Shown here piece after piece: positions 3,197-43,548 of a stretch of 64,000 bases of DNA. The notes beneath the pieces are model-generated. The model had not been told where the DNA came from, ran no database searches, and saw only the letters and a list, made by a program, of their open reading frames with translations. The first letter of the stretch is position 1. Each line of letters opens with the position of its first letter. The position numbers were made by a program, and so were the translations under genes. The stretch is from Bdellovibrionales bacterium. Its GTDB lineage: Bacteria > Bdellovibrionota > Bdellovibrionia > Bdellovibrionales > UBA1609. The stretch lies in assembly GCA_965203225.1 (NCBI GenBank), contig CBDBBW010000007.1, positions 423,574-487,573 of the forward strand, written 5' to 3'.

Positions 3197-3313
3197 CTCG
3201 CGACTGTTCGTTGTTTGTGATCCTATCCTATGCGTTTCCTGTTTAATGGAAATGTATATTTAAGTGTTCTGGCTCGTGACTGTTCGTTGTTTGTGATCCT
3301 GACCCTATGCGTT
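3197..3313. repeat. two copies of a ~45-bp conserved core spaced 76 bp apart
   Basis: ctcgYgactgttcgttgtttgtgatcct..cctatgcgtt starts at 3197 and at 3273. Confidence 0.7.
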
Positions 3314-3350
3314 AGCCTTATTGGATTGCATTGGCTTCATCTTCAAATTG

Positions 3351-3828
3351 TCTATATCTGTAGTCTGTAGTTTGTCCTGTAGTTTATAATCTGTATTCTA
3401 GTCTGTTATTTATAGTTTATAGCCTGTAGTTTATAATCTGTAATCTGTAATCTGTAATCTGTCCTGTAGTTTATAGTCTTGTAGTCTGTAGTCTGTAGTC
3501 TGTAATCTGTAATCTGTTGTTTATAGTTTGTAGTCTGTCCTGTAGTTTATAGTCTGTATTCTAGTCTGTAGTTTATAGTCTGTAGTCTGTAATCTGTAGT
3601 TTATAGTCTGTAGCCTGTCCTGTAGTTTATAGTCTGTAGTTTATAGTTTATAGTTTATAGTTTATAGTTTTATAGTTTATAGTTTATAGTTTATAGTTTT
3701 ATAGTTTATAGTTTATAGTTTATAGTCTGTAATCTGTCCTGTAGTTTATAGTCTGTATTCTAGCCTGTATTCTAGTCTGTAGTCTGTCCTGTAGTTTATA
3801 GTCTGTATTCTAGTCTATAGTCTGTTAT
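3351..3828. repeat. ~480-bp degenerate heptanucleotide microsatellite (TAGTCTG / TAGTTTA / TAATCTG family)
   Basis: Read directly. The core at about 3636-3722 is (tagttta)4 plus an extra t, repeated three times, giving a 29-bp super-period. It lies between convergent gene ends. Confidence 0.9.
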
Positions 3829-3878
3829 GTGCCCCTCATTTTCGAATAAGTACACAAAATAATTGCAAGCAAATATTT

Positions 3879-5168
3879 TTATTTTTCAGAGTTTGGTTCA
3901 GATTTTGTGTTGTCCTCTTCTGTCCATTCTATTTTGTTCTCTTCCATTTGCTCCGCTTCGGTTAAGGCTTTTTCCGCTTCCTGTTGAATACGGAGGTCTT
4001 CCTCCGGATTTTCGAAAATGCTGTTTACGGACTCCGCTTCTTCAATGATTTGTGACTCAAAGCGGTTTTGTGGTTCATCAAACATATCCTTCATTTTTTT
4101 GTCTTTTTCTCCTCCCAGTTTTACAATGAGGGAAGCCAGAAAAGAATAGCCCCTGGAATAATTAGTGCCGTTGATATCTATGTCTCCTGAAAGCCGCAAA
4201 GTTACATAAGGAAAGTGCCAGCCTAGCCAGCCTGTAAAACCAATCACGCCCGGATTGGCTGAGAAAAATCTCAAGCTGGCCGCATTGGTTCGCGTGAGTA
4301 TTTGAGTACGATCCCCCAGCCGGGCAGAGGATTGATCGCGGATCACAGACCAAAAGCCATAAGAATAAAATCCCACTTCGGCAATGTCCGCTTTTAACAT
4401 AAGCCCTAGTTTCCACTGCAGAAGAGAGGACAGGAATTGGGTGCGTAATTGAAAACCCGTATAAGCAAAAGGATACAGTATGTTTTCTATCACTCCATAT
4501 ATCCACAGGGCTGGGGTGAAATGCAGGCTTCCATCATCCGTAATAGGCTTTTCCGTATACTTGTTTACAAGGAAAAAAGGAAAGGAAAAGCTAAATTCCG
4601 GTATAAAGCCAAAATTGTTGTGTATATTTTGTTGACTACGGACAGCCGCTCCCATTCTTTTTATTTGAGGGCCGGAGAACCGAAGCCTTTGTCCGTTTCC
4701 GCTTTGCGCGAACCAGAATCCACTGGAAAATACATCCACTTCAAACCAGTCGGTCAGAGCGTACCCCAGACTTAGCTCCATGCTCATGTACTGAAAGAAG
4801 GGAGTGGAGAAGTTGTTGTCCACGAGACCAAGTGACTGGCGTAAGGATTGAGATCGGAAACTTTGTGTGTAGTTGCTTTCCGTGTAGTAATAGCCTGTGT
4901 TAAGTTCCGTATAAAATGCGCCTCTGCCGTGAGAAAGGGGCAAAGTGAGTGAATCCTCCCCCGCATTGGATGGAAGGGAAAACAGAAACAGAAAATAGAA
5001 AAGGCTTAAGCGGATTTTTTTTAAAATGGCTTGAATAGCGTAAAAAAAACGGAAAAAATCAGACTTTTCATTGATTTTCCGGTTTAAAATTTTCGCTTTC
5101 CATATATGCCTGATTATGGAAGAAAAAGCTTGAGCAAAGGACAAAAAGGATCGACAAAATTTTTTCAT
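3879..5168 (-). CDS. outer-membrane beta-barrel-like protein with acidic C-terminal tail
   Basis: Internal signal-like segment LSLFYFLFLFSLPSNA, so the true start is probably downstream of the annotated M. Alternating aromatic/polar strands follow (FYTELNTGYYYTESNY, GFYSYGFW). The tail is E/D-rich. No specific family recognised. Confidence 0.6.
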   Translation of the reverse strand: MKKFCRSFLSFAQAFSSIIRHIWKAKILNRKINEKSDFFRFFYAIQAILKKIRLSLFYFLFLFSLPSNAGEDSLTLPLSHGRGAFYTELNTGYYYTESNYTQSFRSQSLRQSLGLVDNNFSTPFFQYMSMELSLGYALTDWFEVDVFSSGFWFAQSGNGQRLRFSGPQIKRMGAAVRSQQNIHNNFGFIPEFSFSFPFFLVNKYTEKPITDDGSLHFTPALWIYGVIENILYPFAYTGFQLRTQFLSSLLQWKLGLMLKADIAEVGFYSYGFWSVIRDQSSARLGDRTQILTRTNAASLRFFSANPGVIGFTGWLGWHFPYVTLRLSGDIDINGTNYSRGYSFLASLIVKLGGEKDKKMKDMFDEPQNRFESQIIEEAESVNSIFENPEEDLRIQQEAEKALTEAEQMEENKIEWTEEDNTKSEPNSEK

Positions 5169-5333
5169 TTTTTGTTACATAAAAATTACAATAATTAATA
5201 ATTGTTTAAATAATAAGACCAAATAAGCCGAAAAATCAAGATAAAATCCAAATACTGTTTGGTTTATTATATTGAGGTATAAAGTTGTAGTCCAGTAAAA
5301 GCTGAACCGGGCGGAATAAGTTGAGAAGTAATT

Positions 5334-7238
5334 ATGAAAAGGAAAGTTTTAATTGTTGAAGATGATAAAAATTTTGCGGACAGCCTGGAGAATATTTTTA
5401 CCAAGAAAAATATCACCGTAAAAACCAGTCTCTCTGTCAAGCAGGCGGAGCATTTCATATCTTTGGAAAAATATGATCTACTCATAGTGGATGTGGTTTT
5501 GCCGAAAGTAAATGGAATTGACTTTTTAAAGAAAGTGATTCCTCAAGGGTTTCTACACTCCGGTTGCAAAATATGGATTATCTCCGGTGTGTTCAACCAA
5601 AATATTGTATCAAAAGAGATAATGAACCATGTAGACGCTTTTTTGAAAAAACCTTTAAATTTACACTCCATTGAAAAAAATATAGATACTTTATTTAATC
5701 CTGTTGAAACTCAGACGAACAATCTGCCCTTTTTTTACCTTAATTCAATAAATGAAAAAAATGCCTTGGAAAATAAAAAGTACCTTATTAAAGGCCATGA
5801 GCTTATGTTCATTTATTTTTACCTGTGTTTCATACGTTTTAGTGGGACATTGGAGCTTCATTATCAAGGGAGCACGGATCAGATTTTATTTAGAGACGGT
5901 AATATCTGTAGTTTTAAGTCCGAGGATAAAGAATCTTACCTGGGAGTCTTACTGGTTAAAAATAATTTGGTGGGAAAGGAAGATATAAAAAAACTGTTGA
6001 GAGAGGAAACCGATATCCCTTTAGGCGAGCGCCTTGTAACTGGTTGTTATGTCAGCCCTCATCACTTGCAAAAAATTTTGAGAGAGCAGTTGGCTATCCG
6101 GCTGTTTAAAGCAATGAGTCCTTCGTCCGTAACAATCATCTGTTGCAATTTTGTCACTTCCAAAAAAAGAAATTACGCTGTTGAACTGAATATAAAGGAT
6201 CTTTTCTCTCTAGTGGATAATTGGGTGAAATCCAAAGTGAATATACAGTGGTTAAAAGATTTTTTTGACAATAACAAGGAACTGTATATTAAACCTTTAA
6301 CAAAACCGCCGAACGCGAAACAGTTCATCCACTATCCCGGTCTGAAGTTTTTAGCCTCCTCACCCATAAAAGGATCAAAAACAGTAGAGGAGGTTCTGAA
6401 TGATATGGATAATATGACAGAAGATAATGCCATACGGGAGCTTTATTGCCGACTTTTGGTAAAGGAGAGTTGTTTTGATTACACTGTGGGTAAGAATATA
6501 TCCAAAAATAGTTATGGATTCGTGGAGAAGCAGTATAAAACTTTTCTTAGGGACGCGGGTACGAAAAATTATTTCGAACTACTGAATCTGCCATTGAATA
6601 GCTCCCTTAGTAATATAGAGGAGGCATACAGAAACATGGTGAAAATTTTTCATCCGGACCGACGCGACCGTAATATGCCAGAGGAAATAACGAAACTGTG
6701 TGACCAATGTTTTTTTTTAGTGAACAAAATACATCAAACTTTAATTGATCCAAATAAGAAAGAACAATATCTGAAAAAGCTGGCAGCGGACCACAACAAG
6801 GACAGTTTTACAATTAGATCAGCTTATGTGAGAGGAAAGACAGATCTGGAAAAAGGTTGTTACGCTGAGGCCTTAGAGCAGTTTGAGTCTATTGTTAAAA
6901 GCCGATTTGCTCCCGGAGATACAGTATTGTTTTATATATGGTCTATTATAAAGCACAAGAAATTCGCAATAGATCAGGAAGAAAAAAATAAAATTGTGAA
7001 GCTTTTTGATAGTGTAGGTCTGGAGCACAGGCAAAGCTCGGTGTTTTTTTTCGTTAAAGGTTTATTTATGAAAGCATTCAGAAATAAAGAAGCCGCTTTT
7101 AATTACTTTACGAAGGCGCTTTTACTGGATTCCAAGCTGACGGTAGCTCGCGTGGAAAAGCACTCCCTAGGTCCTGTAGGTCCTGTGCAAAAGAAAAGCC
7201 TGAAATCATTTATGGATTTATTTAAAAAAAGCTCTTGA
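5334..7238 (+). CDS. response-regulator receiver domain fused to a J-domain (DnaJ-like) and TPR-like C-terminus
   Basis: The N-terminus KVLIVEDDKNFADSL...DLLIVDVVLPKVNGIDFLKK is a CheY-like receiver. YFELLNLPLNSSLSNIEEAYRNMVKIFHPDR is a J-domain with HPD. The C-terminus is helical and TPR-like. Confidence 0.8.
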   Translation: MKRKVLIVEDDKNFADSLENIFTKKNITVKTSLSVKQAEHFISLEKYDLLIVDVVLPKVNGIDFLKKVIPQGFLHSGCKIWIISGVFNQNIVSKEIMNHVDAFLKKPLNLHSIEKNIDTLFNPVETQTNNLPFFYLNSINEKNALENKKYLIKGHELMFIYFYLCFIRFSGTLELHYQGSTDQILFRDGNICSFKSEDKESYLGVLLVKNNLVGKEDIKKLLREETDIPLGERLVTGCYVSPHHLQKILREQLAIRLFKAMSPSSVTIICCNFVTSKKRNYAVELNIKDLFSLVDNWVKSKVNIQWLKDFFDNNKELYIKPLTKPPNAKQFIHYPGLKFLASSPIKGSKTVEEVLNDMDNMTEDNAIRELYCRLLVKESCFDYTVGKNISKNSYGFVEKQYKTFLRDAGTKNYFELLNLPLNSSLSNIEEAYRNMVKIFHPDRRDRNMPEEITKLCDQCFFLVNKIHQTLIDPNKKEQYLKKLAADHNKDSFTIRSAYVRGKTDLEKGCYAEALEQFESIVKSRFAPGDTVLFYIWSIIKHKKFAIDQEEKNKIVKLFDSVGLEHRQSSVFFFVKGLFMKAFRNKEAAFNYFTKALLLDSKLTVARVEKHSLGPVGPVQKKSLKSFMDLFKKSS

Positions 7239-7251
7239 GTTTTTCACACAA

Positions 7252-8367: not shown

Positions 8368-8370
8368 TTT

Positions 8371-11793: not shown

Positions 11794-12825
11794 ATGTTTG
11801 AGAAACTTAGAAAGCCGGTCCGAACAAAAAATATTGCCTATTATGTTATTTTTGGTCTTATATGCGTGGTTTTTGTGTTTATCGGGGTGCCGATGGGACA
11901 AATGTCCAGTATAAGCGGATCTGCTTTCATAGTGAATAATAAAATGATTTCCTGGTCAGAATATCAAAATTACCTTGAAATGGTAAGACAACAATCTCAA
12001 AAAGGGGATTTTGGATCGGATTTGGAAACTCAGCGTCAGGAACAACTGAAAAAGCAGGCTATTGATACTCTGCTGAATACGGAGCTAATAAATCAGGAGG
12101 TAGACCAGGTAGGGCTGACTCCTGTCGACAAAGAGGTGCAGGATAAAATTGTGAAGCTTCCTTTTTTTCAGGAAGAAGGCCGGTTTACGCATTCTAAATA
12201 TCGTGCTTTTTTGTCCGCTCGTCGGTTCTCCGCCGGTTATTTTGAAAACCTGATCAGAAAGGAAATACAAACCGCCCGGTTCCAAAATATGTTTAATGTG
12301 GCCGTACGTGTCTCAGAGGGGGAGAAAGAAAAAAGAAAATGGCTGGAGTCATTTAAAGCGCAGGTCAGCTATATTGAGTTTGGGTCTGATGAGCTAAAGC
12401 CGGAGGAGTCAAACAGCATCAACACGATCGTGCGGGAAGGGGACATGGCTTTGCTGGATCAGGTTGTTAGAGATAAAAAATGGAAATGGGAGCAAACGGA
12501 GGTTTTTAATTTACGGCGCGTTTCTTTGCCCGGTTTGGAATCTCATAAAATACTTTTTAATGAGGTATTAAATTATTTTCCTGAAACAGGGTTGATTAAA
12601 AAAACTGTCAATTTGCGTGATCGATTTTTTATATTAAAGGTGGATTCTTTTGTGCAAGCAGAAGAGCCAAATGAGCAAAAAGCTTTCCCTGTTTCGGATT
12701 ATTTTTTTACAAATATGATGTTGGCCCGGATGACTTTTTTATCTTGGGTTCGCTCCGCCCGGCTGTCAGCGAAATTACAATTCAATCCTCGTCTGCAAAC
12801 AAACCAGCCGGCGGAGTTGGAATAA
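11794..12825 (+). CDS. PpiD/SurA-N-like periplasmic chaperone (membrane-anchored)
   Basis: The N-terminus MFEKLRKPVRTKNIAYYVIFGLICVVFVFIG is typical of PpiD-type anchors. A SurA-N-like helical region follows. No clear parvulin domain was seen. Confidence 0.6.
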   Translation: MFEKLRKPVRTKNIAYYVIFGLICVVFVFIGVPMGQMSSISGSAFIVNNKMISWSEYQNYLEMVRQQSQKGDFGSDLETQRQEQLKKQAIDTLLNTELINQEVDQVGLTPVDKEVQDKIVKLPFFQEEGRFTHSKYRAFLSARRFSAGYFENLIRKEIQTARFQNMFNVAVRVSEGEKEKRKWLESFKAQVSYIEFGSDELKPEESNSINTIVREGDMALLDQVVRDKKWKWEQTEVFNLRRVSLPGLESHKILFNEVLNYFPETGLIKKTVNLRDRFFILKVDSFVQAEEPNEQKAFPVSDYFFTNMMLARMTFLSWVRSARLSAKLQFNPRLQTNQPAELE

Positions 12826-13075
12826 ATCTCTGTGTGAAGTAAATCCCTGTTGCCAATACTTTTTTTTTTAACGGGTTCAGACAGCAAGTTGGAATAAATC
12901 TCTGTGTGAAGTAAATCCCTGTTGCCAATACTTTTTTTTTTTAACGGGTTCAGACAGCAAGTTGGAATAAATCTCTGTGTGAAGTAAATCCCTGTTGCCA
13001 ATACTTTTTTTTTTTAACGGGTTCAGACAGCAAGTTGGAATAAATCTCTGTGTGAAGTAAATCCCTGTTACCTTG
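12816..13075. repeat. 72-73-bp tandem array (~3.6 copies) starting inside the last codons and stop of 11794..12825
   Basis: The unit gttggaataaatctctgtgtgaagtaaatccctgttgccaatacttttttttttaacgggttcagacagcaa starts at 12816, 12888, 12961 and 13034. Confidence 0.9.
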
Positions 13076-15698: not shown

Positions 15699-16011
15699 TT
15701 ACTTTAGAAAAAACCCGGCAGTATATTCAACTATAACTTTTACGCTCAAGTGAATTTCAAAAAAATCTCTATCGCTTACTTTATGAAAAAACCCGGCAGT
15801 ATATTCAACTATAACTTTTACGCTCAAGTGAATTTCAAAAAAATCTCTATCGCTTACTTTATGAAAAAACCCGGCAGTATATTCAACTATAACTTTTACG
15901 CTCAAGTGAATTTCAAAAAAAATCTCTATCGCTTACTTTATGAAAAAACCCGGCAGTATATTCAACTATAACTTTTACGCTCAAGTGAATTTCAAAAAAA
16001 ATCTCTATCGC
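15699..16011. repeat. 78-79-bp tandem array, ~4 copies
   Basis: aacccggcag recurs at 15711, 15790, 15868 and 15947. The unit is ttactttatgaaaaaacccggcagtatattcaactataacttttacgctcaagtgaatttcaaaaaaatctctatcgc. Confidence 0.9.
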
Positions 16012-16142
16012 TTTTTTATTATCTTCCCGGTAGAAATAAGGCTTCGTTTTTTTTTAACTGATTGTAATACCAACTAAGGTCTTAAATTTTTTATCAAAGA
16101 ATTTTTTGATGTTATTATTTGTAAGCCTGTAGTCCTGATACC

Positions 16143-17545: not shown

Positions 17546-19390
17546 ATGTTTCATAAATTGATTAAGGCAATAAAAAAAAATTTTTCTTTAGATGTCCGTT
17601 CCCTTGCTTTGTTTAGAGTGGCGCTTGCACTGATTTTAATTATTGATTTCCTGTTTACCCGGCTTCCTTATTTTACTTTGTTTTATACGGATAAAGGGAT
17701 TTTACCTCTGAGAATTTTGTTCCGTGACAAGTCTTTTTGGGCCAGCTCCAGCTCTTTAAATTTTATCTCTTCCAGTCATGGGTACCAGTTGGTTTTGGGC
17801 ATCACAGCGCTAATATTTTTTTTTATGCTTCTTGTGGGGTATAAAACAAGATGGGCTGTGCTGGGATCCTGGATTTTAGTTGCTTCTTTTCATTCTCGAA
17901 ATTTTTTAATTCTTAACTCCGGCGACATATTAATTTGTCTTTTGTTGTTTTGGTCTTTATGTCTTCCTTTGGGAAAACATTTCTCCTTGGACAGCGCCTT
18001 AATGGAAAAAACAAAGCAGGTTTTTTCTGTCTTTTCCGTGAACTCTTTTTCCTTCATCTTTCAGATTCTGCTCGTTTATTTTTTTACTTATTTGATGAAA
18101 TCGGATAATGTATGGAGCACAGGACAGGCGGTTTATTATGCCTTGATGCTGGATAATTTCAGAACAGCCTGGGGGGACATTTTATTACAATATCCCTATG
18201 TCATGCGAGTATTATCTTTTATTACTTATAATATTATTGAAAACTTTGTGCCGTTGTTGTTTGTGTTTTTCGGTTTTTGGTGGCGATTTAAAGTGCTACT
18301 GATTTTGGTTATGTGTTTTTTTCATTTATCTCTCGGGACTTTTTTACATTTGGGTCTTTTTTCATGGGTCTGTATTGCCGGATGGCTGGCTTTTTTGCCT
18401 TCAGAGTTTTGGGAGCATATAAAAGAGCTTCTACCGGCGGGGAAACGTAAATTATTTGTATATTATGATGAAGACTGTACTTTTTGTAAAAAAGCCAGCC
18501 GGTTAATACAAACATTTTTGATTCTTCCCCATGTGCCTTTTGCTCCGGCTCAATCAGACAGCCGCACTTGGGAGGAAATGCAGAAAAGAAATTCATGGCT
18601 GGTGTTTGACGGGGAAGACAACTGGTATAGTCGTTGGGAGGCCTGGGTCGTGTTGATTTCCCGTTCCCCTTTGTTTTTCTATTTAGCCCCTCTGTTTAGA
18701 ATAAAAAAGCTTTCTGCTTTGGGGGACTGGTGTTACGGAAAAGTAGCTGAAAATAGAAAACAACTGGGGTACTTACTTCCGAATTTTCAAAAAGAAAGAA
18801 GTCAAAAAAAAATATTTTCAATATTGCTGACCGGATTTTTCTTTTTTTCGTTTGTATATGTAATCATGTGGAATGTTCGTACTTTGGATTTTAAATATTA
18901 TTCAAAATATATGCCTAAGGAGTGGAATAAATTTGGAGCTTTTTTTCATTTGAACCAATATTGGAATATGTTTTCTCCCAAGCCTTTGGACAAAACCGGC
19001 TGGATTATTCTCTCTGCTGTTAAATCAGATACGGATGAAAAAATAGATCTGTGGAGACAGGGAAAGCCTGTCAGTATGAAAAAACCCATCAGATATGACA
19101 CCAGTTTTCCAAATTTCCGGTTCAGGAAAATGCTTGAAAATTTTGTCCTGCAATATAAAAAATATAGTGTGAATTATCTGCTGTATCTTTGTGGTGAGTG
19201 GAATACAAAAAAGTCCGGACGATATATTGAAAAAATTGAGTTTATTTATATGGAGCAAAAAATCCCTTCTCCGGAGCGTGTGACCAGCCCAGCCTCCAAT
19301 ATGGAGCAAAAAATCCCTTTTTCGGAGCGGCTTTTGCCTCCAAAAAAGGTATCAATACGTAAAAAACGCTGTCCTCGTCAGCGTGGATGA
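17546..19390 (+). CDS. HTTM-domain multipass membrane protein fused to a DCC/DUF393-like CxxC thiol-disulfide oxidoreductase module
   Basis: The HTTM-type N-terminus is SLALFRVALALILIIDFLFTRLPYF... with about 8 TM segments. The central module is KLFVYYDEDCTFCKKASRLIQ (the DCC CxxC signature). The C-terminus NQYWNMFSPKPLDKTGW is as in HTTM/LMF-like proteins. The gene starts 14 nt after paralogue 3. Confidence 0.8.
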   Translation: MFHKLIKAIKKNFSLDVRSLALFRVALALILIIDFLFTRLPYFTLFYTDKGILPLRILFRDKSFWASSSSLNFISSSHGYQLVLGITALIFFFMLLVGYKTRWAVLGSWILVASFHSRNFLILNSGDILICLLLFWSLCLPLGKHFSLDSALMEKTKQVFSVFSVNSFSFIFQILLVYFFTYLMKSDNVWSTGQAVYYALMLDNFRTAWGDILLQYPYVMRVLSFITYNIIENFVPLLFVFFGFWWRFKVLLILVMCFFHLSLGTFLHLGLFSWVCIAGWLAFLPSEFWEHIKELLPAGKRKLFVYYDEDCTFCKKASRLIQTFLILPHVPFAPAQSDSRTWEEMQKRNSWLVFDGEDNWYSRWEAWVVLISRSPLFFYLAPLFRIKKLSALGDWCYGKVAENRKQLGYLLPNFQKERSQKKIFSILLTGFFFFSFVYVIMWNVRTLDFKYYSKYMPKEWNKFGAFFHLNQYWNMFSPKPLDKTGWIILSAVKSDTDEKIDLWRQGKPVSMKKPIRYDTSFPNFRFRKMLENFVLQYKKYSVNYLLYLCGEWNTKKSGRYIEKIEFIYMEQKIPSPERVTSPASNMEQKIPFSERLLPPKKVSIRKKRCPRQRG

Positions 19391-19404
19391 AATTGCCGAT
19401 AGGG

Positions 19405-19511
19405 TATAAAACCAATTTGATAGTGTTGTTTTTCCAAAAGCGGCGGTTTTTTGTTTATTCGTAAATCAAAATCCAATTATAAAACCAATTTGATAGTGTT
19501 GTTTTTCCAAA
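19405..19511. repeat. two copies of a 34-bp core spaced 73 bp apart
   Basis: tataaaaccaatttgatagtgttgtttttccaaa starts at 19405 and 19478. Confidence 0.8.
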
Positions 19512-19573
19512 TCGATAAAAAAATGAAATAAAATTCAAAAAGTTCAAACAAGTAAAATCCCGGCAGGTTATTT

Positions 19574-26443: not shown

Positions 26444-26807
26444 TGGTGAGAAGCGGGAATCCCTAGGGTGAGAAAGGGATCGGAAGATTTTCGCCAAAGC
26501 GATCAGGCCCAAGTGGTACTGCGCTTTTGGAGTGAGCAAGGGATCGGAAGATTTTCGATAAAGCGATCAGGCCCAAGTAGTACTGCGCTTTTGGAGTGAG
26601 AAGGGGATCGGAGATTTTCGCCAAAGCGATCAGGCCCAATTAGTACTGCGCTTTTGGAGTGAGAAGGGATTGGAGATTTTCGCCAAAGCGATCAGGCCCA
26701 ATTAGTACTGCGCTTTTGGAGTGAGAAGGGATTGGAGATTTTCGCCAAAGCGATCAGGCCCAATTAGTACTGCGCTTTTGGAGTGAGAAGGGGATCGGAG
26801 ATTTTCG
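26444..26807. repeat. 62-64-bp tandem array, ~5.5 copies
   Basis: gatcaggccc recurs at 26501, 26565, 26628, 26690 and 26752. The unit is gagtgagaagggatcggagattttcgccaaagcgatcaggcccaattagtactgcgcttttg. Confidence 0.9.
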
Positions 26808-26940
26808 ACAGTCAAAATTCCAACATTGAGATGTTGGGCAATTGACTTTTATATGTGTGAATACTGTGCCGGGACATGAACTTTTTGTTTGAACCGGGGA
26901 GCCAAAAAGTTCTTTTTTAAGATTCTTTTTTTCTTGAAGT

Positions 26941-27183
26941 TCAATGCAGGCGATGATCCTGCACTCTGGACAAAGCCATGCACTGGGTACAGCGGGCTTC
27001 CTCCTTTTATGGAGAGCATTAATGCAGGCGATGATCCTGCACTCTGGACAAAGCCATGCACTGGGTACAGCGGGCTTCCTCCTTTTATGGAGAGCATTAA
27101 TGCAGGCGATGATCCTGCACTCTGGACAAAGCCATGCACTGGGTACAGCGGGCTTCCTCCTTTATATGGAGAGCATTAATGCA
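26941..27183. repeat. 78-bp tandem array (~3.1 copies) derived from the 3' coding end of 27097..27303
   Basis: atgcagg recurs at 26944, 27022 and 27100. The last unit is the gene's own C-terminal 26 codons plus its stop. Confidence 0.9.
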
Positions 27184-27303
27184 CTCCACATAAATATCCA
27201 GTGTGCCATGACAAATGGGGCATTGTGTTTGCTCTCTCAAAAAATCTGTTTTTTCATTTTCCTTGTACTCATAATGTTCTTTTAATTGATTAGTAGTTCT
27301 CAT
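27097..27303 (-). CDS. small zinc-ribbon protein (CxxC...CxxC)
   Basis: 68 aa with CPICHG...(20 aa)...CTQC. Its 3' end is the template of the adjacent tandem array. Confidence 0.55.
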   Translation of the reverse strand: MRTTNQLKEHYEYKENEKTDFLREQTQCPICHGTLDIYVECINALHIKEEARCTQCMALSRVQDHRLH

Positions 27304-28197: not shown

Positions 28198-29454
28198 TTG
28201 ATGTTTTTGAAATATTTGGATTTTAAAATGATTACAGTGAATATGAAACTTTTTAACTCTTTTGGAAAATGGTATATAAAAATTCTGACAACCACTCTTT
28301 TTACGGGACTGGTTATGTTGACTTTTTATATGATAAGCTGTCAGGATCTGAATTTTCAGTCCATCCCCGGTGCCAGCTGTGATGAAACAATAGAAATGGT
28401 GGACGGGCTTTCCTGTGGTGATGTGGGAGGAGTGAACGCGGATACTTATGAATATGAAGATGAAGATGAAGATGAATATGAAGATAAAGGTTCAGATCCC
28501 AACACTTCCCAATCTCGCCCCTTCACTCTGGTCACTCGCCTTGGTAAAATCAGTATTTTGTTTATTATAGACACCTCCGGGTCTATGAAGGAAGAGTTGG
28601 CATCTATATCCACTCAGTTTGATCCTTTTTTACAAAAGATCAGAAGGATGGATTATCAGGTAGCCATTACCACAGTTGAGTCGATAAACGGGCAGTTTCT
28701 GACATTTGAAAACGGTCAAAAAATTCTCTCCAATCCGACAAAAAAAAGCTCGGTTCATAAAGAAAATGTGAAACAGTTTCAGCAGAAAATGGAGAATTTG
28801 CCTGTAGCTACCACATCGGATGAAAGGGCTATTTTTGTCTTAAATAAAGTGTTGGATGCGCAGGCCCAGTCGGGATTTTTCCCATCTCATTCTCTCTTTT
28901 TGGCGATCATTGTTTCAGATGAGGATGAAAGAAGTTACGGAGGCGTCCTCCCTTCCTTGCCATCCGATTGTATGGTGCTAGAGACAGTCTCTGCTCACCC
29001 TCTGGAGGAGTTTGATAAGCCGGTCACTTTTTTCAGAAAAAGCCAACAGCAACTACCTTATGTTACAGTGACTGTGCATTCCATTATTGTGCCCCCGGGC
29101 AGTAGTGATTGTGCCACTAATCCCTGTGCACCAAGCGGTGTGAGGATAGAAGGTAAAATTTACGCTCAGGCTTCAAAACCTTCCTCTGCCATGTTGTCCA
29201 CTTACGGGAATGTTCGAACCGGTCATATAGGCTCTATTTGTTCCTCTGATTACAGTAGTCAGTTGGGCCCTATTGCTGATATATTGATAAATACCCCCTC
29301 TATTCCGCTTCACTGTAATCCCGTGTCCGGCAAAGTGAAAGTTCGAGTGGGTGGGGATAAAGTGAAATTTCGAGTGGAAGGCAATAAAATTATCATAGAG
29401 GAATCGGTTTCTTTCAATTCCTATGCAAAAGTGCGGTACTATTGTCGATCATAA
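28198..29454 (+). CDS. vWA-like secreted protein, distant paralogue 4 (acidic linker)
   Basis: TM/signal LFTGLVMLTFYMISC, then YEYEDEDEDEYEDKG. Domain motifs are ISILFIIDTSGSM (DxSxS), YQVAITT, IIVSDEDE, HSIIVPPGSSDC and IGSICSSDYSSQLGPIA, collinear with the 13.5-17.5 kb family. Confidence 0.8.
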   Translation: MMFLKYLDFKMITVNMKLFNSFGKWYIKILTTTLFTGLVMLTFYMISCQDLNFQSIPGASCDETIEMVDGLSCGDVGGVNADTYEYEDEDEDEYEDKGSDPNTSQSRPFTLVTRLGKISILFIIDTSGSMKEELASISTQFDPFLQKIRRMDYQVAITTVESINGQFLTFENGQKILSNPTKKSSVHKENVKQFQQKMENLPVATTSDERAIFVLNKVLDAQAQSGFFPSHSLFLAIIVSDEDERSYGGVLPSLPSDCMVLETVSAHPLEEFDKPVTFFRKSQQQLPYVTVTVHSIIVPPGSSDCATNPCAPSGVRIEGKIYAQASKPSSAMLSTYGNVRTGHIGSICSSDYSSQLGPIADILINTPSIPLHCNPVSGKVKVRVGGDKVKFRVEGNKIIIEESVSFNSYAKVRYYCRS

Positions 29455-30132
29455 CCTTTTTCGTTTGATAGGCTGATGTGAGGAGGGTTTGTTTCGGTTC
29501 TGAGGATGTACTATTGTCGATCATAACTTTTCCAGTTTGATAGGGGTTTTTCATCCAGTCAGTTCCCCGTTGGCTGGCAAAGAATTAAATATACTCCTCT
29601 TATTCCAGTCAGTTCCAAGTGATGTCAGTTCCCCGTTGGCTGGCAAAGAATTAAATATACTCCTCTTATTTCCAGTCAGTTCCAAGTGATGTCTGTGTCA
29701 GTGCCATCTGTCAATAATAACTTTTCCCGATGACAGGGGTTTTGCCTCCTTGTCCGCGCTTACTCCATTATGGAAAAAACCTTAAGCCAAAGTCCTGCCC
29801 CTTCCCTTATGAAAGACTGTCTTATTTTACCCTTAAGCCAAGGCCCTTTCTCCTCCCTTATGAAAGGCCGTCTCATTTTGAGACACCGACTGTTTCACTT
29901 AAGCCAAGGCCTTTTCTCCTCTTTTATGAAAGGCCGTCTCATTTTGAGACAGCGACTGTTTCATTTCGCCCTTAAGCCAAAGTCCCGCCCCTTCCCTTAT
30001 GAAAGACTGTCTTATTTCACCCTTAAGCTAAGGCCCTTTCTCCTCTTTTATGAAAGGCTGTTTCATTTTGAGACACTGACTGTTTCATTTTTCCCTTAAG
30101 CCAAAGTCCTGCCCCTTCCCTTATGAAAGGGC
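29436..30132. repeat. composite repeat block filling the whole convergent intergenic gap
   Basis: (i) gtactattgtcgatcataac at 29436 and 29508 duplicates the last codons of 28198..29454 with a 72-bp offset. (ii) ccagtcagttcc units of 50/67 bp start at 29555, 29605 and 29672. (iii) 29780-30132 holds alternating 51-bp and ~68-bp units (ccttaagccaa...cccttatgaaag...) in the order A-B-B-A-B-A, ending against the sohB stop. Confidence 0.9.
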
Positions 30133-31934: not shown

Positions 31935-31967
31935 GTTTTTTTGCTCAGCAAAGTCAGGTGAAAATAG

Positions 31968-32207
31968 GACCAGTTTTGTTGTCTTTGCGCTTAATTTTGT
32001 TGCCTTTGCATGAATGATGATATGCGCTTGATTTTGTTGCCTTTGCATGAATGATGATATGTGCTTGATTTTGTTGCCTTTGCATGAATGATGATATGCG
32101 CTTAATTTTGTTGCCTTTGCATGAATGATGATATGCGCTTGATTTTGTTGCCTTTGCATGAATGATGACATGCACTTGATTTTGTTGCCTTTGCGCGGAA
32201 TAGGAAT
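31968..32207. repeat. 37-bp tandem array, ~6 copies
   Basis: The unit gcgcttRattttgttgcctttgcatgaatgatgatat starts at 31987, 32024, 32061, 32098, 32135 and 32172. Confidence 0.9.
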
Positions 32208-32229
32208 AGGGCGGGGCATTCTTTGGGTC

Positions 32230-32766: not shown

Positions 32767-33059
32767 TGATTATTATCTTTGTTACAGGTTGAAAATAAAA
32801 AAGAAAGCTCAGATTTTAACTTGATTGGGCTTACTTTCAACAGTTTTCAATAAATACTCTTATCCAGTTTGATTTTTCAGGTTTTCATAATATGAAAATT
32901 GTCAGTAATCAGCCACATACACATACATCTTCAGGACCTGTGGTCAAAATTTGGACTCACATAAGGGCCTTTTCATAAGGGCAGTATAATTTAAGGATAT
33001 TTTTTTGTCCATAATTATACGAATAAGATGGTTTTTTTTCCTAATGGTCGTCAGGAGGT

Positions 33060-34470
33060 GGGGGGGCTTAAGCCAGTGGCGTAAGGGGTAGAGCTTGATG
33101 ATATGTCCAAAAATATTCATCGTTTGAAGTGGAGGGGCTTAAGCCAGAGGCGTAAGAGGTAGAGGGAGGGGTCGGACTGCTGTGCCGCCAAGAGCTGGGT
33201 TTTGGATGGAGTTCCAGTTGTTTTTGTCGTCTGTACAGGTATGTAGGTATATGCCCTAAGAGTTGGGGGTGTATAGCCTCCGTCCATAAGGCAAGAGGTT
33301 AATCAACATTTACGGAACTCTATGGGCAAGGCATCAGCAGGAGCAGGGTGCATGGCCTCTGTCCATAAGGCAAGAGGTTAATCAACATTTACGGAACTCT
33401 ATGGGCAAGGCATAGGGCATCAGGGTTCATGGCCTCTGTCCATAAGGCAAGAGGTTAATCAACATTTACGGAACTCTATGGGCAAGGCATAGGGCATCAG
33501 GGTTCATGGCCTCTGTCCATAATGCAAGAGGTTAAGCAACATTTACGGACGACTCTATGGGCAAGGCATCGGGAGCAGGGTGCATAGCCTCGTGTCCATA
33601 AGGCAGGAGGTTAAACCAGGCGGATCAGGCCTGTATGCACAAGAAAAAGGAGGTACCAGGCCTACCCATCCATAAGGCAAGAGGTTAATCAACATTTACG
33701 GAAAGGGCATCAGGGTGCATAGCCTGTGTCCATAAGGTAACTGTTAAGATAAAGTGCGATGCGTGCCCGTCAAGGGGGGCATCAAGGTGTATAGTATAGC
33801 CTCTGTCCAGGGCATGAGGTTAAACCAATCAGACCTGTATGCACAAGAACAGGGTACACAGGCCTCCTTATCCTCACCATCCATAAGGCAGGAGGTTAGG
33901 CAATATTTACAGAACTCTATGGGCAGAGCATCAAGGTGCATAGCCTCGTGTCCATAAGGCAGGAGGTTAAACCAGGCGGATCAGGCCTGTATGCACAAGA
34001 AAAAGGAGGTACCAGGCCTACCCATCCATAAGGCAAGAGGTTAATCAACATTTACGGAAAGGGCATCAGGGTGCATAGCCTGTGTCCATAAGGTAACTGT
34101 TAAGATAAAGTGCGATGCGTGCCCGTCAAGGGGGGCATCAAGGTGTATAGTATAGCCTCTGTCCAGGGCATGAGGTTAAACCAATCAGACCTGTATGCAC
34201 AAGAACAGGGTACATAGGCCTCCTTATCCTCACCATCCATAAGGCAGGAGGTTAGGCAATATTTACAGAACTCTATGGGCAGAGCATCAAGGTGCATAGC
34301 CTGTGTCCATAAGGCAAGAGGTTAATCAACATTTACGGAACTCTATGGGCAGGGTGCATAGCCTCCGTCCATAAGGCAGGAGGTGTTAAACCAGGCGGAT
34401 CAGGTCTGTATGCGCAAGAAAAAGGAGGTACCAGGCCTACCCATCCATAAGGCAGGAAGTTAAGTCCTCT
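33060..34470. repeat. 1.4-kb complex repeat region (71-bp pair, degenerate ~77-bp units, nested 356-bp tandem duplication)
   Basis: gcttaagccag pair at 33065 and 33136. gtccataaggcaRgaggtta... units with a ~77-bp period start at about 33280. 33581-33936 is duplicated at 33937-34292, and the near-identical ORFs 33744..33941 and 34100..34297 are 356 bp apart. Confidence 0.9.
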
Positions 34471-34692
34471 GTAGATGGTGTGCATTTTGGAAGTGCGGAA
34501 AACTTGGATTGTTTTATTCGTACTAAGCCAAAAGTCGCTCGAAATAAAAAGTTGTTGAGTATTAAGCAGTGTATTAAGTATCTTCAGTTTTATAAAAAAC
34601 TGTTGCGTGATCCCTTGCCCTTAATGTTTTCAGTTTTGCGCGAGGGAATCTGTCACTTGCCATAAATAACAATCTGGTGGATATTATTTGTT

Positions 34693-36087: not shown

Positions 36088-36103
36088 GCTGAATATCGTC
36101 GAA

Positions 36104-36853: not shown

Positions 36854-36950
36854 AAGCTGGAGCTAGAGTAAAGGGGCTATGGATGGTTTCATACAGGATC
36901 AAATCTTCCCAAATTGCATTGTCATCAGGAGGTGAGGAGAGGGAGGGAGG

Positions 36951-37215
36951 GGGGCAGAGGATGTTTTCACGGTAGCCGTGGCGGTTCGAATATTGTGATT
37001 CAGGGTCATTTGTTGTTGAGGGGCAGAGAATGTTTTCACGGTAGCCTGTGGCGGTGAATCTATAGATGCGTATGGGAGTTAAGAAGATGGTGTTTGATGC
37101 CCTGTTTGTACCTTTTAATTTGCGAACCAACCGATCTAATAAGAAGGGATGATGTTTGATGCCCTGTTTGTACCTTTTAATTTGCGAACCAACCGATCTA
37201 ATAAGAAGGGATGGT
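36951..37215. repeat. two adjacent short arrays (69-bp x2; 60-62-bp x2.3)
   Basis: ggggcagagRatgttttcacggtagcc starts at 36951 and 37020. aagaagRRatgRtgtttgatgccctgtttgtaccttttaatttgcgaaccaaccgatctaat starts at 37081 and 37141, with a partial copy at 37203. Confidence 0.85.
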
Positions 37216-37439
37216 ATTGGCTTATCTATCTCTGGACCCCTGTATTTATATGTCAGATATGGTCGGGGCTGAATAAGGTTTCACAGACAGCTTGTTTTTT
37301 TTGTATCATTAGTTTTATTATTGTAATGGTTTTTTTGTGGCTAAAGGGGAAAACGGCGGCTTTCCTTTCTCCCGTAGCCGATGTGGGCTTTGGGTGAGTT
37401 GGTTTTTTTGCAGACGGTGTCAAACTTTAACTTTATAGA

Positions 37440-37730
37440 GTGGATTTTTGCTTGCGTACTTAAGGTGTAATTTGTATCGAGAGCAGTGTCAGACTGAGGT
37501 CGTATAGTTTTTTGCAATGGGATTTGATGCCGACGAGGCTGAATTGTCTAAAGTTGCATTTATAATCTGGGGCAGTATCAGGCTTAGGTCGATGAGGCTG
37601 AATTGTCTGAGTTGCATGTGTAATCTGTACCGGTGGCAGTGTCAGACTGAGTTCGATGAGTCTGAATTGTTTAATTTGACTGTGTAATCTGGGGCAGTAT
37701 CAGACTTAGGGCGTATAGTTTTTTGCAAGG
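37440..37730. repeat. irregular array (58-89-bp spacing, 4 copies) upstream of bolA
   Basis: gcagtRtcagRctKag...gaggctgaattgtct...taatctg cores start at 37483, 37572, 37636 and 37694. Confidence 0.75.
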
Positions 37731-38136: not shown

Positions 38137-38156
38137 AAGCCTCATTCCCTGATACA

Positions 38157-38305
38157 GAGTTAGGCTGTCCTTACATTTTCAAGGTACCCCCTCGGTTATC
38201 TCAAGATCCCCTATTACAAAAGCAACAGGAGTTAGGTTGTCCTTACATCTTCAAGGTATCCCCTCGGTTTCAAGGTATCCCCTCGGCTTCAAGGTATCCC
38301 CTATA
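38157..38305. repeat. 72-bp-offset pair plus 17-bp triplet
   Basis: gagttaggYtgtccttacatYttcaaggta starts at 38157 and 38229. ttcaaggtatcccctcgg occurs about three times in 38251-38305. Confidence 0.8.
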
Positions 38306-38410: not shown

Positions 38411-38872
38411 TTGGAGGTTAATATGGCAGTAAAGAAGCAAAAAAAAGCGATTAAAAGAAAAAAGAAGGTAGTAAAAAAAAAAGCTAAAAAGAAAGTAGTA
38501 AAAAAGCAGGCTAAGAAAAAAGTAGTGAAAAAGAAGGCTAAGAAAAAAGTGGTGAAAAAGCAGGCCAAGAAAAAAGTAGTGAAAAAGAAGGCTAAGAAAA
38601 AAGTGGTGAAAAAGAAGAAAAGGAAATTGAACCCGGCTCTTATGAAAACTCTGGAAGCTTCAGACAAACTTGCGGCGGTAGTGAATTCAAAAAAGATCAC
38701 CAGGCAAAAAGCAATCAAGCATTTTTGGGACTATGTAAAGAAGAACAAATTACAAGACTCAAAAGACAGACGCAATATCAACTTGGATGACAAGTTGAAG
38801 CAGCTTTTTGGAAATAAAAAACAAGTGAGTATGTTTGAAGCAACAAAAGTGATAAGTAAAAATTTGAAATAG
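38411..38872 (+). CDS. histone-H1-like lysine-repeat N-terminus fused to a SWIB/MDM2 domain
   Basis: Six 8-aa units AKKKVVKK(K/Q) are followed by LNPALMKTLEASDKLAAVV..KKITRQKAIKHFWDYVKKNKLQDSKDRRNINLDDKLKQLFG..VSMFE, the SWIB pattern. Confidence 0.85.
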   Translation: MEVNMAVKKQKKAIKRKKKVVKKKAKKKVVKKQAKKKVVKKKAKKKVVKKQAKKKVVKKKAKKKVVKKKKRKLNPALMKTLEASDKLAAVVNSKKITRQKAIKHFWDYVKKNKLQDSKDRRNINLDDKLKQLFGNKKQVSMFEATKVISKNLK

Positions 38873-38934
38873 AAAATAATTGTAATTTAGCTGAACTAAA
38901 GAAGCCTGCTTTTTTATAAAGAGTGGGCTTCTTT

Positions 38935-39585
38935 TTGAAAAATCAATTATTAAGTGTTTTTCTAATTGAGACTTTATTCTTATTTGTATAGAAGCTTTGT
39001 TTTTATAGAGATAGAGATTTTGTTCTTATGGATGAATTGAAAAGCAAACAAAATAAAGAGTTAGATTATAAGGTTTGTAAAGAGGCCATGAACAATCCTG
39101 ACTGGATGGAGGAATTAAACCGATGGGGTCGGGAGGAGATTCGCTTGGCGGAAGATGAGATGCCAGGTTTGATGGCTTTAAGGAAAGAGTATACTGCACT
39201 GAAGCCTCTTGCCGGCGCGCGTATCACGGGTTGCTTGCACAGACCATCCAAACAGCGGTGTTGATAGAAACCCTGATTGATCTGGGCGCTCAGGTGAGGG
39301 TGAAAAAACAGAAAAGGAAGTTGAACCCGGCTCTTATGAAAATTCTGGAAGCTTCAGACAAACTTGCGGCGGTAGTGGGTTCAAAAAAGATCACCAGGCA
39401 AAACGCGATCAAGCATTTTTGGGACTATGTAAAGAAGAACAAATTACAAGACTCAAAAGACAGACGCAATATCAACTTGGATGACAAGTTGAAGCAGCTT
39501 TTTGGAAGTAAAAAACAAGTGAGTATGTTTGAAGTAACAAAGTTGATAAGTAAAAATTTGAAATAGAAAATGATTGTAATTTAGT
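38935..39585 (+). pseudogene. chimeric duplication: ahcY promoter plus codons 1-91 (with a 1-nt deletion) joined to the last ~90 codons of the SWIB gene
   Basis: 38935-39297 matches 40675-41038, except that cacatgacc becomes cacagacc. 39298-39585 matches about 38603-38893. The joint is at caggtgag|ggtgaaaaa (GGTGA microhomology). The ORF track fragments are 39028..39264 and 39231..39566. Confidence 0.8.
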
Positions 39586-40607: not shown

Positions 40608-40767
40608 TTTTTTTATCGAGCGGGAAAAAGAGATTTGTTTTTAACTTTAATTTATGAGTTTATGAAATTTCAAATTGAAAAATCAATTATTAAGTGTTTT
40701 TCTAATTGAGATTTTATTTTTATGTGTATAGAAGCTTTGTTTTTATGGAGATTGAGGTTTCATTCTT

Positions 40768-42117: not shown

Positions 42118-42199
42118 TTTTTGTGTTATTTTTCCCTGACGGGATCCTGTTGTCTGGTTCTTTTTGGACTGGTTGTTCGGTCCTTTTGGTCTCTTCCTG

Positions 42200-42565
42200 T
42201 CTCAATAACAAGTTTTGTTTTGCGGTCCGAATAGCCAAAATCGTCATAGGCTTATGCACAGGAAACTTCCCTCCCGAGGATTTTACGGTCTATAAAAGGG
42301 ATAATGAAACAGCCCATCGTCATAGGCTTATGCACAGGAAACTTCCCTCCCGAGGATTTTACGGTCTATAAAAGAGATAATGAAACAGCCCATCGTCATA
42401 GGCTTGTGCACAGGAAATTTCCCTCCCGAGGATTTTACGGTCTATAAAAGAGATAATGAAACAGCCCATCGTCATAGGCTTGTGTACACAGGCAACTTTC
42501 CCATCTCAATAACAAGTTCCGTACTGCTGTCCTGTTCTGATTTGTACTGCTGTCCTGTTCTGAAG
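42200..42565. repeat. 76-bp tandem array (~4 unit lengths) bracketed by tctcaataacaagtt, plus a 23-bp doublet
   Basis: tcgtcatagg recurs at 42241, 42317 and 42393. The 15-mer sits at 42200 and 42504, which is 304 bp apart (4 x 76). gtactgctgtcctgttctga occurs twice at about 42520-42565. Confidence 0.9.
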
Positions 42566-42610
42566 TGACCAGTCGTTTGGCCATAAAGAGTCAAAATCCC
42601 TTGGAATTTT

Positions 42611-43171
42611 TTAAGTGCAATTAGTATCTTGTGAGTTATTTATTTTTTCCATGTTTAGATAGTTTAGGTATGTTTTCATTTCTCTGATACTTTCCCGAGC
42701 GTCATCCAAGGCGCGGTGTTTGTTTTCTTTTTTAAATGTGATTCCTATGTTGGAGAAAATGATTTTCCATGCTGAAATGTCCAGCATCCGGTAGTGGAGC
42801 CGTTCCTCAAACTTAAGAAGGTGTTTTTTAATAAACAGCCGGTCTTGATAAATGGAATTGCCGGCCAGAATGATTTTTTCATCTTTAAAATGTTCATCTG
42901 CCAGATAAATCAGTTCTCTTTCCATCTGATCCTGTGTAGTCCCTTTGGGGACCAGTTCGTAGAGTCCTGATTTCTTGTGCTGTTTTGTATTCCATTTGTC
43001 CATCTTTTCTAAATAGTCTTTATGCTGTTTGACTATTTGGTGATAGGAATGCAGTTCTTTATACTGGTGGTCAGTGACAACCACAGCTACTTCAATGATA
43101 ACTTCTTTTTCCGGGTCCAAGCCTGTCATTTCCATATCCAGCCATAGAAATTTTTGCACTTTTGGGTTCAT
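42611..43171 (-). CDS. orn: oligoribonuclease
   Basis: DEDDh exonuclease: LWLDMEMTGLDPEK, GNSIYQDRLFI and HRALDDARESIREM. Confidence 0.9.
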   Translation of the reverse strand: MNPKVQKFLWLDMEMTGLDPEKEVIIEVAVVVTDHQYKELHSYHQIVKQHKDYLEKMDKWNTKQHKKSGLYELVPKGTTQDQMERELIYLADEHFKDEKIILAGNSIYQDRLFIKKHLLKFEERLHYRMLDISAWKIIFSNIGITFKKENKHRALDDARESIREMKTYLNYLNMEKINNSQDTNCT

Positions 43172-43406
43172 AAATTACAGACCTTTTCTGTTTGTATCAC
43201 TTAAATTTCCCTTATCCGACGCTTTTTCATTCTTTGGTGAAAAAAAACCATGAAGAATTCAAGCGGGATCAGTATCGCTTAGCTTGTGTAATACTATAAC
43301 TTTATAGTTATTTTTTGCTGAAAACAAGATTATTTGTTATAAATAGTAATCTGTTGTATATTTGGCATGGCTATATAAACCTCGATTTTGTGTTGTGGGG
43401 GTAGTT

Positions 43407-43548
43407 GATTGGATTGCTGTAAATGGGTGTTGCAAATGCTGATCGAATTGCTGGGAATGGGTATTGCAAATGCTGATCGAATTGCTGTAAATAGATGTTC
43501 CAAATGTTGATTGGATTGCTGTAAATGGGTGTTGCAAATGCTGATTGG
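43407..43548. repeat. 34-bp tandem array, ~4 copies
   Basis: gatYgRattgctg recurs at 43407, 43441, 43475, 43509 and 43543. Confidence 0.9.

Follow-up and report, generated by a model that had tools for sequence, protein, structure and literature searches.

According to a 2012 comparison of bacterial genomes (PMC3287509), the highest tandem-repeat content reported for a bacterium is that of Ehrlichia ruminantium, with 201 tandem repeats of 139 bp mean period covering 6.3% of the genome; 89 repeats are given for the 4.6 Mb of E. coli (Table 4 therein). The non-coding DNA of E. ruminantium is reported to expand and contract by tandem units of ~150 bp (Frutos 2006, as cited in PMC6547736 and PMC10710844). 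For Wolbachia wMel, 93 tandem repeats making up 1.6% of the genome were counted, and the expansion and contraction of variable-number tandem repeats (VNTRs) was attributed to slipped-strand mispairing (PMC3287509). In long-read metagenome-assembled genomes (MAGs) of planktonic Planctomycetota, non-coding insertions and deletions are, in the excerpted part of that study, concentrated at intergenic tandem repeats and ascribed to polymerase slippage (PMC9426551). The DNA treated here (the window) is a stretch of 64,000 nucleotides from a Bdellovibrionales bacterium (GenBank assembly GCA_965203225.1, contig CBDBBW010000007.1, positions 423,574 to 487,573 of the forward strand), the intergenic gaps of which carry numerous minisatellite arrays. 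These arrays are attributed to a burst of local tandem duplication in one uncultured, probably host-associated Bdellovibrionales-like lineage, a burst that is recent and probably still ongoing. They had been pointed out in an earlier note on this DNA, by which the precedent of E. ruminantium, with its expansion and contraction of non-coding DNA by ~150-bp units, was missed.

Arrays were detected over the window with Tandem Repeats Finder (TRF), a repeat finder and an offset scan of our own. The core segment (1–43.7 kb), to which the following counts refer, was found to contain ~24 tandem arrays, 19 of which are independent and non-coding; in addition, it holds a heptamer array of 470 bp and, within coding sequence, two in-frame duplications. 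Every array of the earlier note was recovered at its coordinates by TRF and the offset scan, including the weak ones of about 1.5 copies at 3195, 19402, 29436, 33055, 36948 and 38156. With the TRF settings of the published Wolbachia/Ehrlichia comparison (PMC3287509), the core yielded 36 rows at 19 loci; these account for 9.9% of its DNA, their period averaging 70 bp and their internal match 92%. The non-coding DNA of the core amounts to 10.9 kb, and ~45% of it consists of arrays (own sums). The copies are arranged head-to-tail and are 76–100% identical by TRF, mostly 93–99%, and nested and higher-order duplications are present; this range of identities, together with the nesting, indicates a continuing process that has left arrays of mixed ages. 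Of the 22 gaps that exceed 100 bp, 12 contain arrays, as do 10 of the 11 that exceed 400 bp, so that the presence of arrays in the gaps stood whereas the wording “nearly every core intergenic gap” was too broad. Spurious open reading frames (ORFs) of 80–113 amino acids (aa) arise from the arrays at 12699–13001, 26849–27285, 29730–30099, 31896–32219, 37149–37397 and 42123–42371.

The gaps were compared with those of related genomes. The closest genomes are uncultured “Bdellovibrionales bacterium” MAGs of 1.8–3.0 Mb, with SohB proteins 63–80% identical to that of the window and a mostly matching gene order. In 12 syntenic relatives the orthologous gaps measure 0–240 bp and are free of arrays, whereas the array-bearing gaps of the window measure 183–761 bp; array-free gaps have the same length in the window and in the relatives. 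Four gaps may serve as examples:

vWA-like/sohB gap: 4–140 bp in the relatives, 678 bp in the window
ampD/hpt gap: −11 to 70 bp in the relatives, 295 bp in the window
HTTM/VC0807 gap: −61 to 83 bp in the relatives, 183 bp in the window
hyp310/hyp462 gap: 70–237 bp in the relatives, 464 bp in the window

No arrays were found in the nearest relatives (loci L012–L015, SohB 78–80% identical), and the trait is therefore not shared at that depth. For arrays with a period of at least 30 bp, the density per 100 kb is 41 in the core and 3.6 over the 222 kb examined from relatives. Because the syntenic relatives have compact, array-free gaps, the arrays are recent, lineage-specific insertions.

The arrays of the core are listed below; a strand is named only where one was assigned, A stands for the repeated part and B for the unique part of a unit, and an A-B-A repeat consists of two copies of A separated by B.

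3187..3313, A-B-A direct repeat of period 76 bp, A ~41–51 bp, 48 bp past the stop of a 347-aa gene in a convergent gap
3357..3825, degenerate heptamer array (TAGTCTG/TAGTTTA), ~70 copies, ~470 bp, in the same convergent gap as the 3187 array
12815..13069, plus strand, array of period 73 bp, 3.5 copies, 99% identical, structure (AB)3A with A = 37 bp and B = 36 bp
15699..16013, plus strand, array of period 78 bp, 4.0 copies, 99% identical, 20 bp past the stop of gene 14746–15678, remainder ~2–3 bp
19247..19348, plus strand, 51-bp tandem duplication that adds 17 codons in frame to the variable C-terminal tail encoded by an HTTM/DCC1-like gene (17546–19390)
19402..19514, A-B-A repeat of period 73 bp, A = 34 bp, B = 39 bp, 11 bp past the stop at 19390 in a convergent gap
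26468..26807, array of period 62–64 bp, 5.4 copies, 94% identical, in a convergent gap
26943..27183, minus strand, array of period 78 bp, 3.1 copies, repeating the last 22 codons and the stop of a 68-aa zinc-ribbon gene (27097–27303, minus strand)
29436..29544, plus strand, A-B-A repeat of period 72 bp, A = 37 bp, ~90% identical, A spanning the stop and the 5 codons before it in gene 28198–29454
29558..29693, array of period 66 bp, 2.0 copies, 98% identical, junction microhomology 3–6 bp
29780..30131, composite array of six units of two types (51 bp; 66–73 bp), reaching to within 1 bp of the stop codon of sohB (30133)
31986..32194, array of period 37 bp, 5.6 copies, higher-order pattern of 111 bp, in the convergent ampD-like/hpt gap
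33055..33165, A-B-A repeat of period 71 bp, A = 40 bp, in the divergent hpt/fumC gap
33267..34470, 1.2-kb block of ~16 units of 60–79 bp with a 356-bp higher-order repeat (2.3 copies), in the divergent gap at a synteny breakpoint
36948..37055, A-B-A repeat of period 69–70 bp, A ~38 bp
37086..37213, array of period 62 bp, 2.1 copies, 98% identical, microhomology 4–6 bp
37531..37710, older array of period 64 bp, 3 copies, 76% identical, ending 117 bp upstream of bolA
38156..38302, A-B-A repeat of period 72 bp, A ~42 bp, with a 19-bp array of 2.8 copies, 19 bp past the bolA stop
42240..42498, array of period 76 bp, 3.4 copies, 96% identical, in the convergent ahcY/orn gap
43406..43548, array of period 34 bp, 4.2 copies, 83% identical, in a divergent gap 127 bp upstream of tRNA-Asp

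The heptamer block is microsatellite-like and forms a class separate from the 60–80 bp minisatellites; Beggiatoaceae have been reported to carry direct repeats of heptamers (PMC4679880). The longer unit type of the composite array at 29780–30131 contains a nested 22-bp duplication, and the array at 42240 is flanked by an older direct repeat, TCTCAATAACAAGTT, at 42197 and 42501. In the block at 33267–34470, at least three unit types have unrelated bodies and share only a head of 20–30 bp, CCATAAGGCARGAGGTTAA. In the relatives L013 and L014, hpt adjoins the dcw cluster (redoxin, rsmH, ftsL, ftsI and mur genes); in the window (32767–34692) it is followed by a gene-free gap of 1.9 kb and then by fumC, and this difference in order means that a synteny breakpoint coincides with the largest array block (33055–34470).

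The junctions of the arrays can be read directly. Microhomology of 2–7 bp was found in five clean arrays (15699, 26943, 29558, 37086 and 43406), and remainders of only 2–7 bp at 15699, 29558, 37086 and 43406 are the signature of microhomology-mediated tandem duplication. Copied gene 3′ ends are equally plain. At 26943–27183, the conserved zinc-ribbon gene ends ...KEEARCTQCMALSRVQDHRLH*, identically to its relatives, and is intact; it is followed by further copies of its native last 22 codons and stop. The duplicated segment is flanked by 6 bp of microhomology (TGCATT), the junction T|AA restores a stop codon, and the distal copy probably preserves the ancestral TGA stop. The unit at 12815 begins 8 nt ahead of the stop of a ppiD-like gene (11794–12825), and the 29436 array likewise belongs to those that begin 8–16 nt before a stop codon; in both cases the protein is intact. 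The observation that the units at 12815, 26943 and 29436 take in the terminal codons and stop of the flanking gene was thereby borne out, as was the in-frame 51-bp duplication within a gene 3′ end (19247/19298), the 17 extra residues of which are absent from homologues.

The periods of the 19 arrays are 19, 34, 37, 62, 62, 64, 66, 66, 69, 71, 72, 72, 73, 73, 76, 76, 77, 78 and 78 bp, so that 10/19 lie at 71–79 bp and 16/19 at 60–80 bp (all 16 within 62–78 bp). This clustering has a scan-corrected P of <5e-5 under a uniform null and of 0.004 under a log-uniform null, and none of 38 arrays in the 222 kb of relatives has a period of 60–80 bp (Fisher test against the window, 2e-11). The clustering at 71–79 bp that had been noticed by hand is thus significant against simple nulls as well as against the relatives. 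Quantisation by helical turns was rejected by inspection, since 66, 69 and 76–78 are not multiples of 10.5 bp.

Within the unit, eight arrays of period 69–76 bp are divided into a repeated part A of 34–42 bp and a unique part B of 30–41 bp; across the arrays generally, A measures 34–46 bp and B 25–41 bp. Among 15 arrays, no remainder falls at 0.66–1.0 of the period. In the A-B-A arrays the standard deviation (SD) of the period is 2.3 bp, that of A 2.8 bp and that of B 3.9 bp, and the smaller scatter of the period implies that the sum A+B is the constrained quantity. Three simple origins of this geometry were rejected: decay of two-copy arrays, because the DNA beyond the second A is unrelated to B in five of the six A-B-A loci; a hidden half-period with B as a diverged A and a true step of ~37 bp, because alignment scores of A against B equal those of shuffled sequences; and templating of B from nearby sequence, because B segments, searched on both strands, matched neither the rest of the window nor the 15 loci (222 kb) of the relatives.

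Placement was evaluated relative to the gene ends that face the gaps. Arrays lie within 60 bp of 11/24 gene 3′ ends and of 0/24 5′ ends (P = 2e-4), which upholds the 3′-end bias claimed before, and the smallest distance between an array and a start codon is 108 bp. Convergent gaps carry arrays in six of eight cases and divergent gaps in two of eight (the 33055–34470 block and 43406); in all four co-directional gaps with arrays, an array stands beside the upstream stop codon. Array starts are found from −87 to +132 bp relative to stop codons, seven of them within 25 bp. Only two duplications lie within coding sequence, both in-frame and in variable tails (51 bp at 19247 and 27 bp at 38468).

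The units were compared all-against-all with blastn-short. Matches among the 21 units were confined to short motifs between neighbouring arrays (29.7–34.5 kb); the units are unrelated between loci, and the view that each array has its own unit held. A dispersed family (REP/BIME, ERIC, MIRU or MITE) was accordingly rejected, there being no consensus across loci and no palindromic or hairpin unit. The arrays at 29781–30131, 33055–33094 and 33284–34445 share CTTAAGCC, located within the 10-bp palindrome GGCTTAAGCC, and CATAAGG(S)ARGRGG, in either orientation, and an array containing CATAAGGCGG is also present in the relative L005 (19398–19558). Such motifs could reflect shared array ancestry or a recurring binding or hot-spot motif. 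Intrinsic terminators were rejected as the content of the arrays, since a consensus scan gave 18 sites against 18.0 expected and 21 against 21.3, with a single weak site inside an array; the link to terminator function on which the earlier note had speculated found no support. Structured RNA was likewise rejected, as folding z-scores against dinucleotide shuffles centre on 0 on both strands, and an Rfam scan of the whole window matched only tRNA-Asp. With neither terminator enrichment nor an RNA structure signal nor an Rfam match beyond the tRNA, there is no sign of function, and the arrays are probably without a function of their own.

It is considered reasonably likely that the arrays arose by microhomology-mediated tandem duplication followed by slippage, with selection against events near promoters, in the manner of E. 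ruminantium. A segment of ~60–80 bp would be duplicated in place through illegitimate (microhomology-mediated) strand misalignment during replication or repair, and the resulting direct repeats would then grow or shrink by entire units through slipped-strand mispairing or unequal exchange, a turnover that would explain why copies are 93–100% identical and that may well continue. The duplication process would be sequence-blind and gene ends would not be its target; rather, selection would act as a filter, with events past or across a stop codon being neutral and tolerated and those within genes or ~100 bp upstream of starts being purged. Arrays would abut stop codons because the ancestral gaps were very short. 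From the placement data we infer that the 3′ bias has this simpler explanation, namely that duplication across or after the stop keeps the gene intact whereas promoters and 5′ untranslated regions (UTRs) are under purifying selection; the latter would leave no array within 108 bp of a start codon, as found.

Several results weigh against duplication followed by slippage as a full account. Plain slippage predicts a monotonic fall of frequency with unit length, from which the mode at 62–78 bp departs, and periods of 20–60 bp are nearly absent although TRF would detect them; duplications of that size would be equally neutral, so that their near-absence is not explained. A long partial copy (24–50 bp), in place of microhomology, stands at the end of ten of 15 arrays, and six loci consist of A-B-A only (A 34–42 bp, B 30–39 bp), which simple duplication does not predict. 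The preferred 62–78 bp unit and the ~38-bp half-unit array ends are thus left unaccounted for. TRF and the offset scan detected no unique-unit minisatellites in the ~5 kb of non-coding DNA of the low-GC segment at 44–64 kb, for which an extra assumption is needed, such as a recent arrival of that segment. For a comparison of copy numbers between strains, a second strain of the species was sought in the protein collection and none was found, the next SohB being 80% identical.

Alternatively, a length-measuring duplication process with a step of ~72–78 bp might act at transcription-unit ends, for instance through replication–transcription conflict or R-loops past the stop codons, or through a nucleoprotein-footprint ruler. 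The clustering of the periods (10/19 at 71–79 bp, 16/19 at 60–80 bp), the period SD of 2.3 bp in the A-B-A arrays, below those of A (2.8 bp) and B (3.9 bp), the seven arrays that begin no more than 25 bp from a stop, and the characteristic ~150-bp unit of E. ruminantium, which is roughly double, all agree with such a process. It is nevertheless judged rather unlikely: arrays are also found in two divergent promoter gaps and in coding sequence, other periods exist (34, 37, 51, 62–69 and 105–124 bp), terminators and structures in the units are at chance level, and the offsets between array starts and stops are spread from −87 to +132 bp. Moreover, close relatives with the same genes in the same order are array-free, so that a conserved transcription architecture alone is insufficient, and avoidance of at least 108 bp upstream of starts accounts fully for the 3′ bias. 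Of the earlier proposal of a length-determined rather than sequence-determined duplication at transcription-unit ends, the length bias and the independence of sequence therefore stood; action at transcription-unit ends found no support, in view of the arrays in divergent promoter gaps and coding sequence and of the lack of any terminator or structure excess. Distinctly unlikely is a molecular ruler with a ~72-bp step and a ~38-bp half-step that makes A-B-A footprints at arbitrary sequences, which slippage then amplifies. Candidates for such a ruler are speculative and include a tetramer of the single-stranded-DNA-binding protein (SSB) holding a looped-out nascent strand, a superhelical turn on a nucleoid or histone-like protein, and a long-stagger integrase. 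The SSB tetramer has 35-nt and 65-nt binding modes.

The A-B-A loci might also be footprints of staggered-cut (“neo-CRISPR”-like) integration, in which a B of ~34 bp is inserted, a target A of ~38 bp is duplicated and slippage amplifies the product. Off-target Cas1–Cas2 integration that creates new repeat–spacer loci has been reported (Nivala 2018, as cited in bioRxiv 10.1101/148544), and the six A-B-A loci with their characteristic lengths and an unrelated continuation, the lack of similarity between A and B, the absence of remainders at 0.66–1.0 of the period in 15 arrays, and the constant 20–30 bp head before at least three unrelated bodies at 33284–34445 would fit. The lengths of A and B vary, however, unlike those set by an integrase ruler, copies of B are identical within an array, B is unmatched in the window and in the 222 kb of relatives, class I arrays of the same period consist entirely of native sequence (that at 26943 being purely a gene 3′ end), no recognisable cas gene is present among the window proteins, and the Rfam scan was negative; this origin is regarded as highly improbable. 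In favour of functional cis-elements, such as multiplied terminators, 3′-UTR RNA stabilisers, small RNAs or protein-binding arrays, are the position of the arrays directly after stop codons, the high identity of the copies and the T-runs of some units (12815, 15699). Terminator-like sites at chance level that do not coincide with arrays, folding z-scores of ~0 on both strands, the lack of an Rfam family or of a motif common to units of different loci, and array-free orthologous gaps in every relative examined make this explanation very unlikely. Spurious tandem expansion during assembly deserves mention because the contig is metagenome-derived, and is hardly credible: an identical SohB protein on a 1.27-Mb contig implies an assembly of long-read quality, the arrays are just 110–1200 bp long, their ordered internal variants, higher-order patterns and partial decay (76–100%) are not produced by artefacts, and relatives assembled likewise are array-free. 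Duplication through microhomology with subsequent slippage and selective filtering is therefore retained as the preferred explanation.

The core is ordinary chromosome, with rodA-pbp2-mreC, def-fmt-rpe, radA, trmB, sohB, hpt, fumC, bolA, map, ahcY, orn and tRNA-Asp. Two SWIB/MDM2-domain proteins are encoded side by side (38411–38872 and 39231–39566), the first having a lysine-rich N-terminus derived from a 27-bp array of 5.6 copies (9-aa repeats). SWIB/MDM2 is a eukaryote-like chromatin domain best known from Chlamydiae, and the two SWIB-domain proteins together with Sel1-repeat proteins suggest a host-associated lifestyle. In a 634-aa protein (5334–7238), a response-regulator receiver domain at the N-terminus is joined to a DnaJ-like J domain at about residues 412–521, an unusual fusion. 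Directly past tRNA-Asp begins a low-GC segment (43676–64000; GC 26–33% as compared with 38–45%), which looks like a genomic island. It encodes a DUF4145 protein and an N6/N4 DNA methylase, likely a restriction–modification system, a 1518-aa orphan protein, fragmented Sel1 genes, a protein built of 35-aa repeats (105-bp coding repeats, 56163–56667), and a fusion of a trypsin-like protease with 14 or more Sel1 repeats (57905–60556).

Sporadic intergenic arrays were also seen in more distant relatives: one in L008 (15863–16514) with a period of 140 bp and 4.7 copies that are 100% identical, one in L006 (1605–1940) with a period of 147 bp and 2.3 copies, and a cluster in L005 (17922–19558) with periods of 21–65 bp. 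The periods of 140 and 147 bp are about twice the mode of the window and near the ~150 bp of E. ruminantium.

Among known repeat systems, MIRU, REP/BIME, ERIC and MITE elements share the intergenic location of the present arrays, and the 51–77 bp units of MIRU reportedly (Supply et al.) overlap the stop and start codons of flanking genes; these families have a shared consensus and are often palindromic, whereas the units described here are unrelated between loci and unstructured. With CRISPR and neo-CRISPR loci the arrays have in common the repeat–spacer–repeat arrangement, a total period of ~70 bp and a locus-specific “repeat”; they differ in that the spacers are identical within an array, repeat and spacer lengths are variable, no cas gene is present in the window, and some arrays are native gene sequence. 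Wolbachia VNTR-141 and VNTR-105 and the bacterial loci used in multiple-locus VNTR analysis (MLVA) are likewise intergenic minisatellites (~100 bp there), with copies 98–99% identical, but in Wolbachia they are few and have hairpin units, whereas the density here is about tenfold and the units are unstructured. A preferred unit length and a 3′-end placement, as seen here, are not reported in the excerpted part of the Planctomycetota study (PMC9426551).

The closest resemblance is to E. ruminantium. In both cases locus-unique non-coding arrays lengthen the gaps, gene fragments are duplicated at array edges, unit length and not sequence is characteristic, slippage is presumed, and the bacterium has a small genome and lives, here probably, in association with a host. 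For E. ruminantium, “active genome expansion/contraction”, with truncated gene fragments at the repeats, was reportedly described by Collins (2005) and Frutos (2006). Tandem repeats also take up comparable shares of the DNA, 6.3% of the E. ruminantium genome and 9.9% of the 43.7-kb core. The unit, however, is ~150 bp there (mean TRF period 139 bp) and 62–78 bp here (mean 70 bp), the local density here exceeds that of E. ruminantium 3–6 times (per 100 kb, 43 loci or 82 TRF rows as compared with 13 TRF-listed repeats), and the host is Bdellovibrionota-like, E. ruminantium being a member of the Alphaproteobacteria. Copy-number variation from strain to strain has been demonstrated in E. ruminantium. 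To our knowledge, the A-B-A half-unit geometry has not been described for E. ruminantium.

If the 44-kb core is typical of the genome, its tandem-repeat load would exceed that of E. ruminantium. The arrays represent an independent second case, in an unrelated phylum, of non-coding DNA growing by unit-length tandem duplication in the evolution of a host-associated genome, a growth that runs counter to the usual deletional bias of bacterial genomes. With locus-unique units, and with compact, syntenic sister genomes for comparison, one knows what each gap looked like ancestrally and can count every array as an independent event, which gives a clean view of a raw mutational process. Neither the preferred 62–78 bp period nor the ~38-bp terminal repeat follows from plain slippage, and both could be clues to a particular defect in replication or repair. 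Were the ruler reading true, the same class of process at a double step could underlie the ~150-bp units of E. ruminantium. The arrays would also be suited to strain typing, and caution is advised for gene callers on account of the spurious ORFs. Taken together, the window presents tandem-repeat plasticity of the E. ruminantium type in a new phylum, with a terminal geometry that simple duplication does not predict, a unit half as long and a higher local density.

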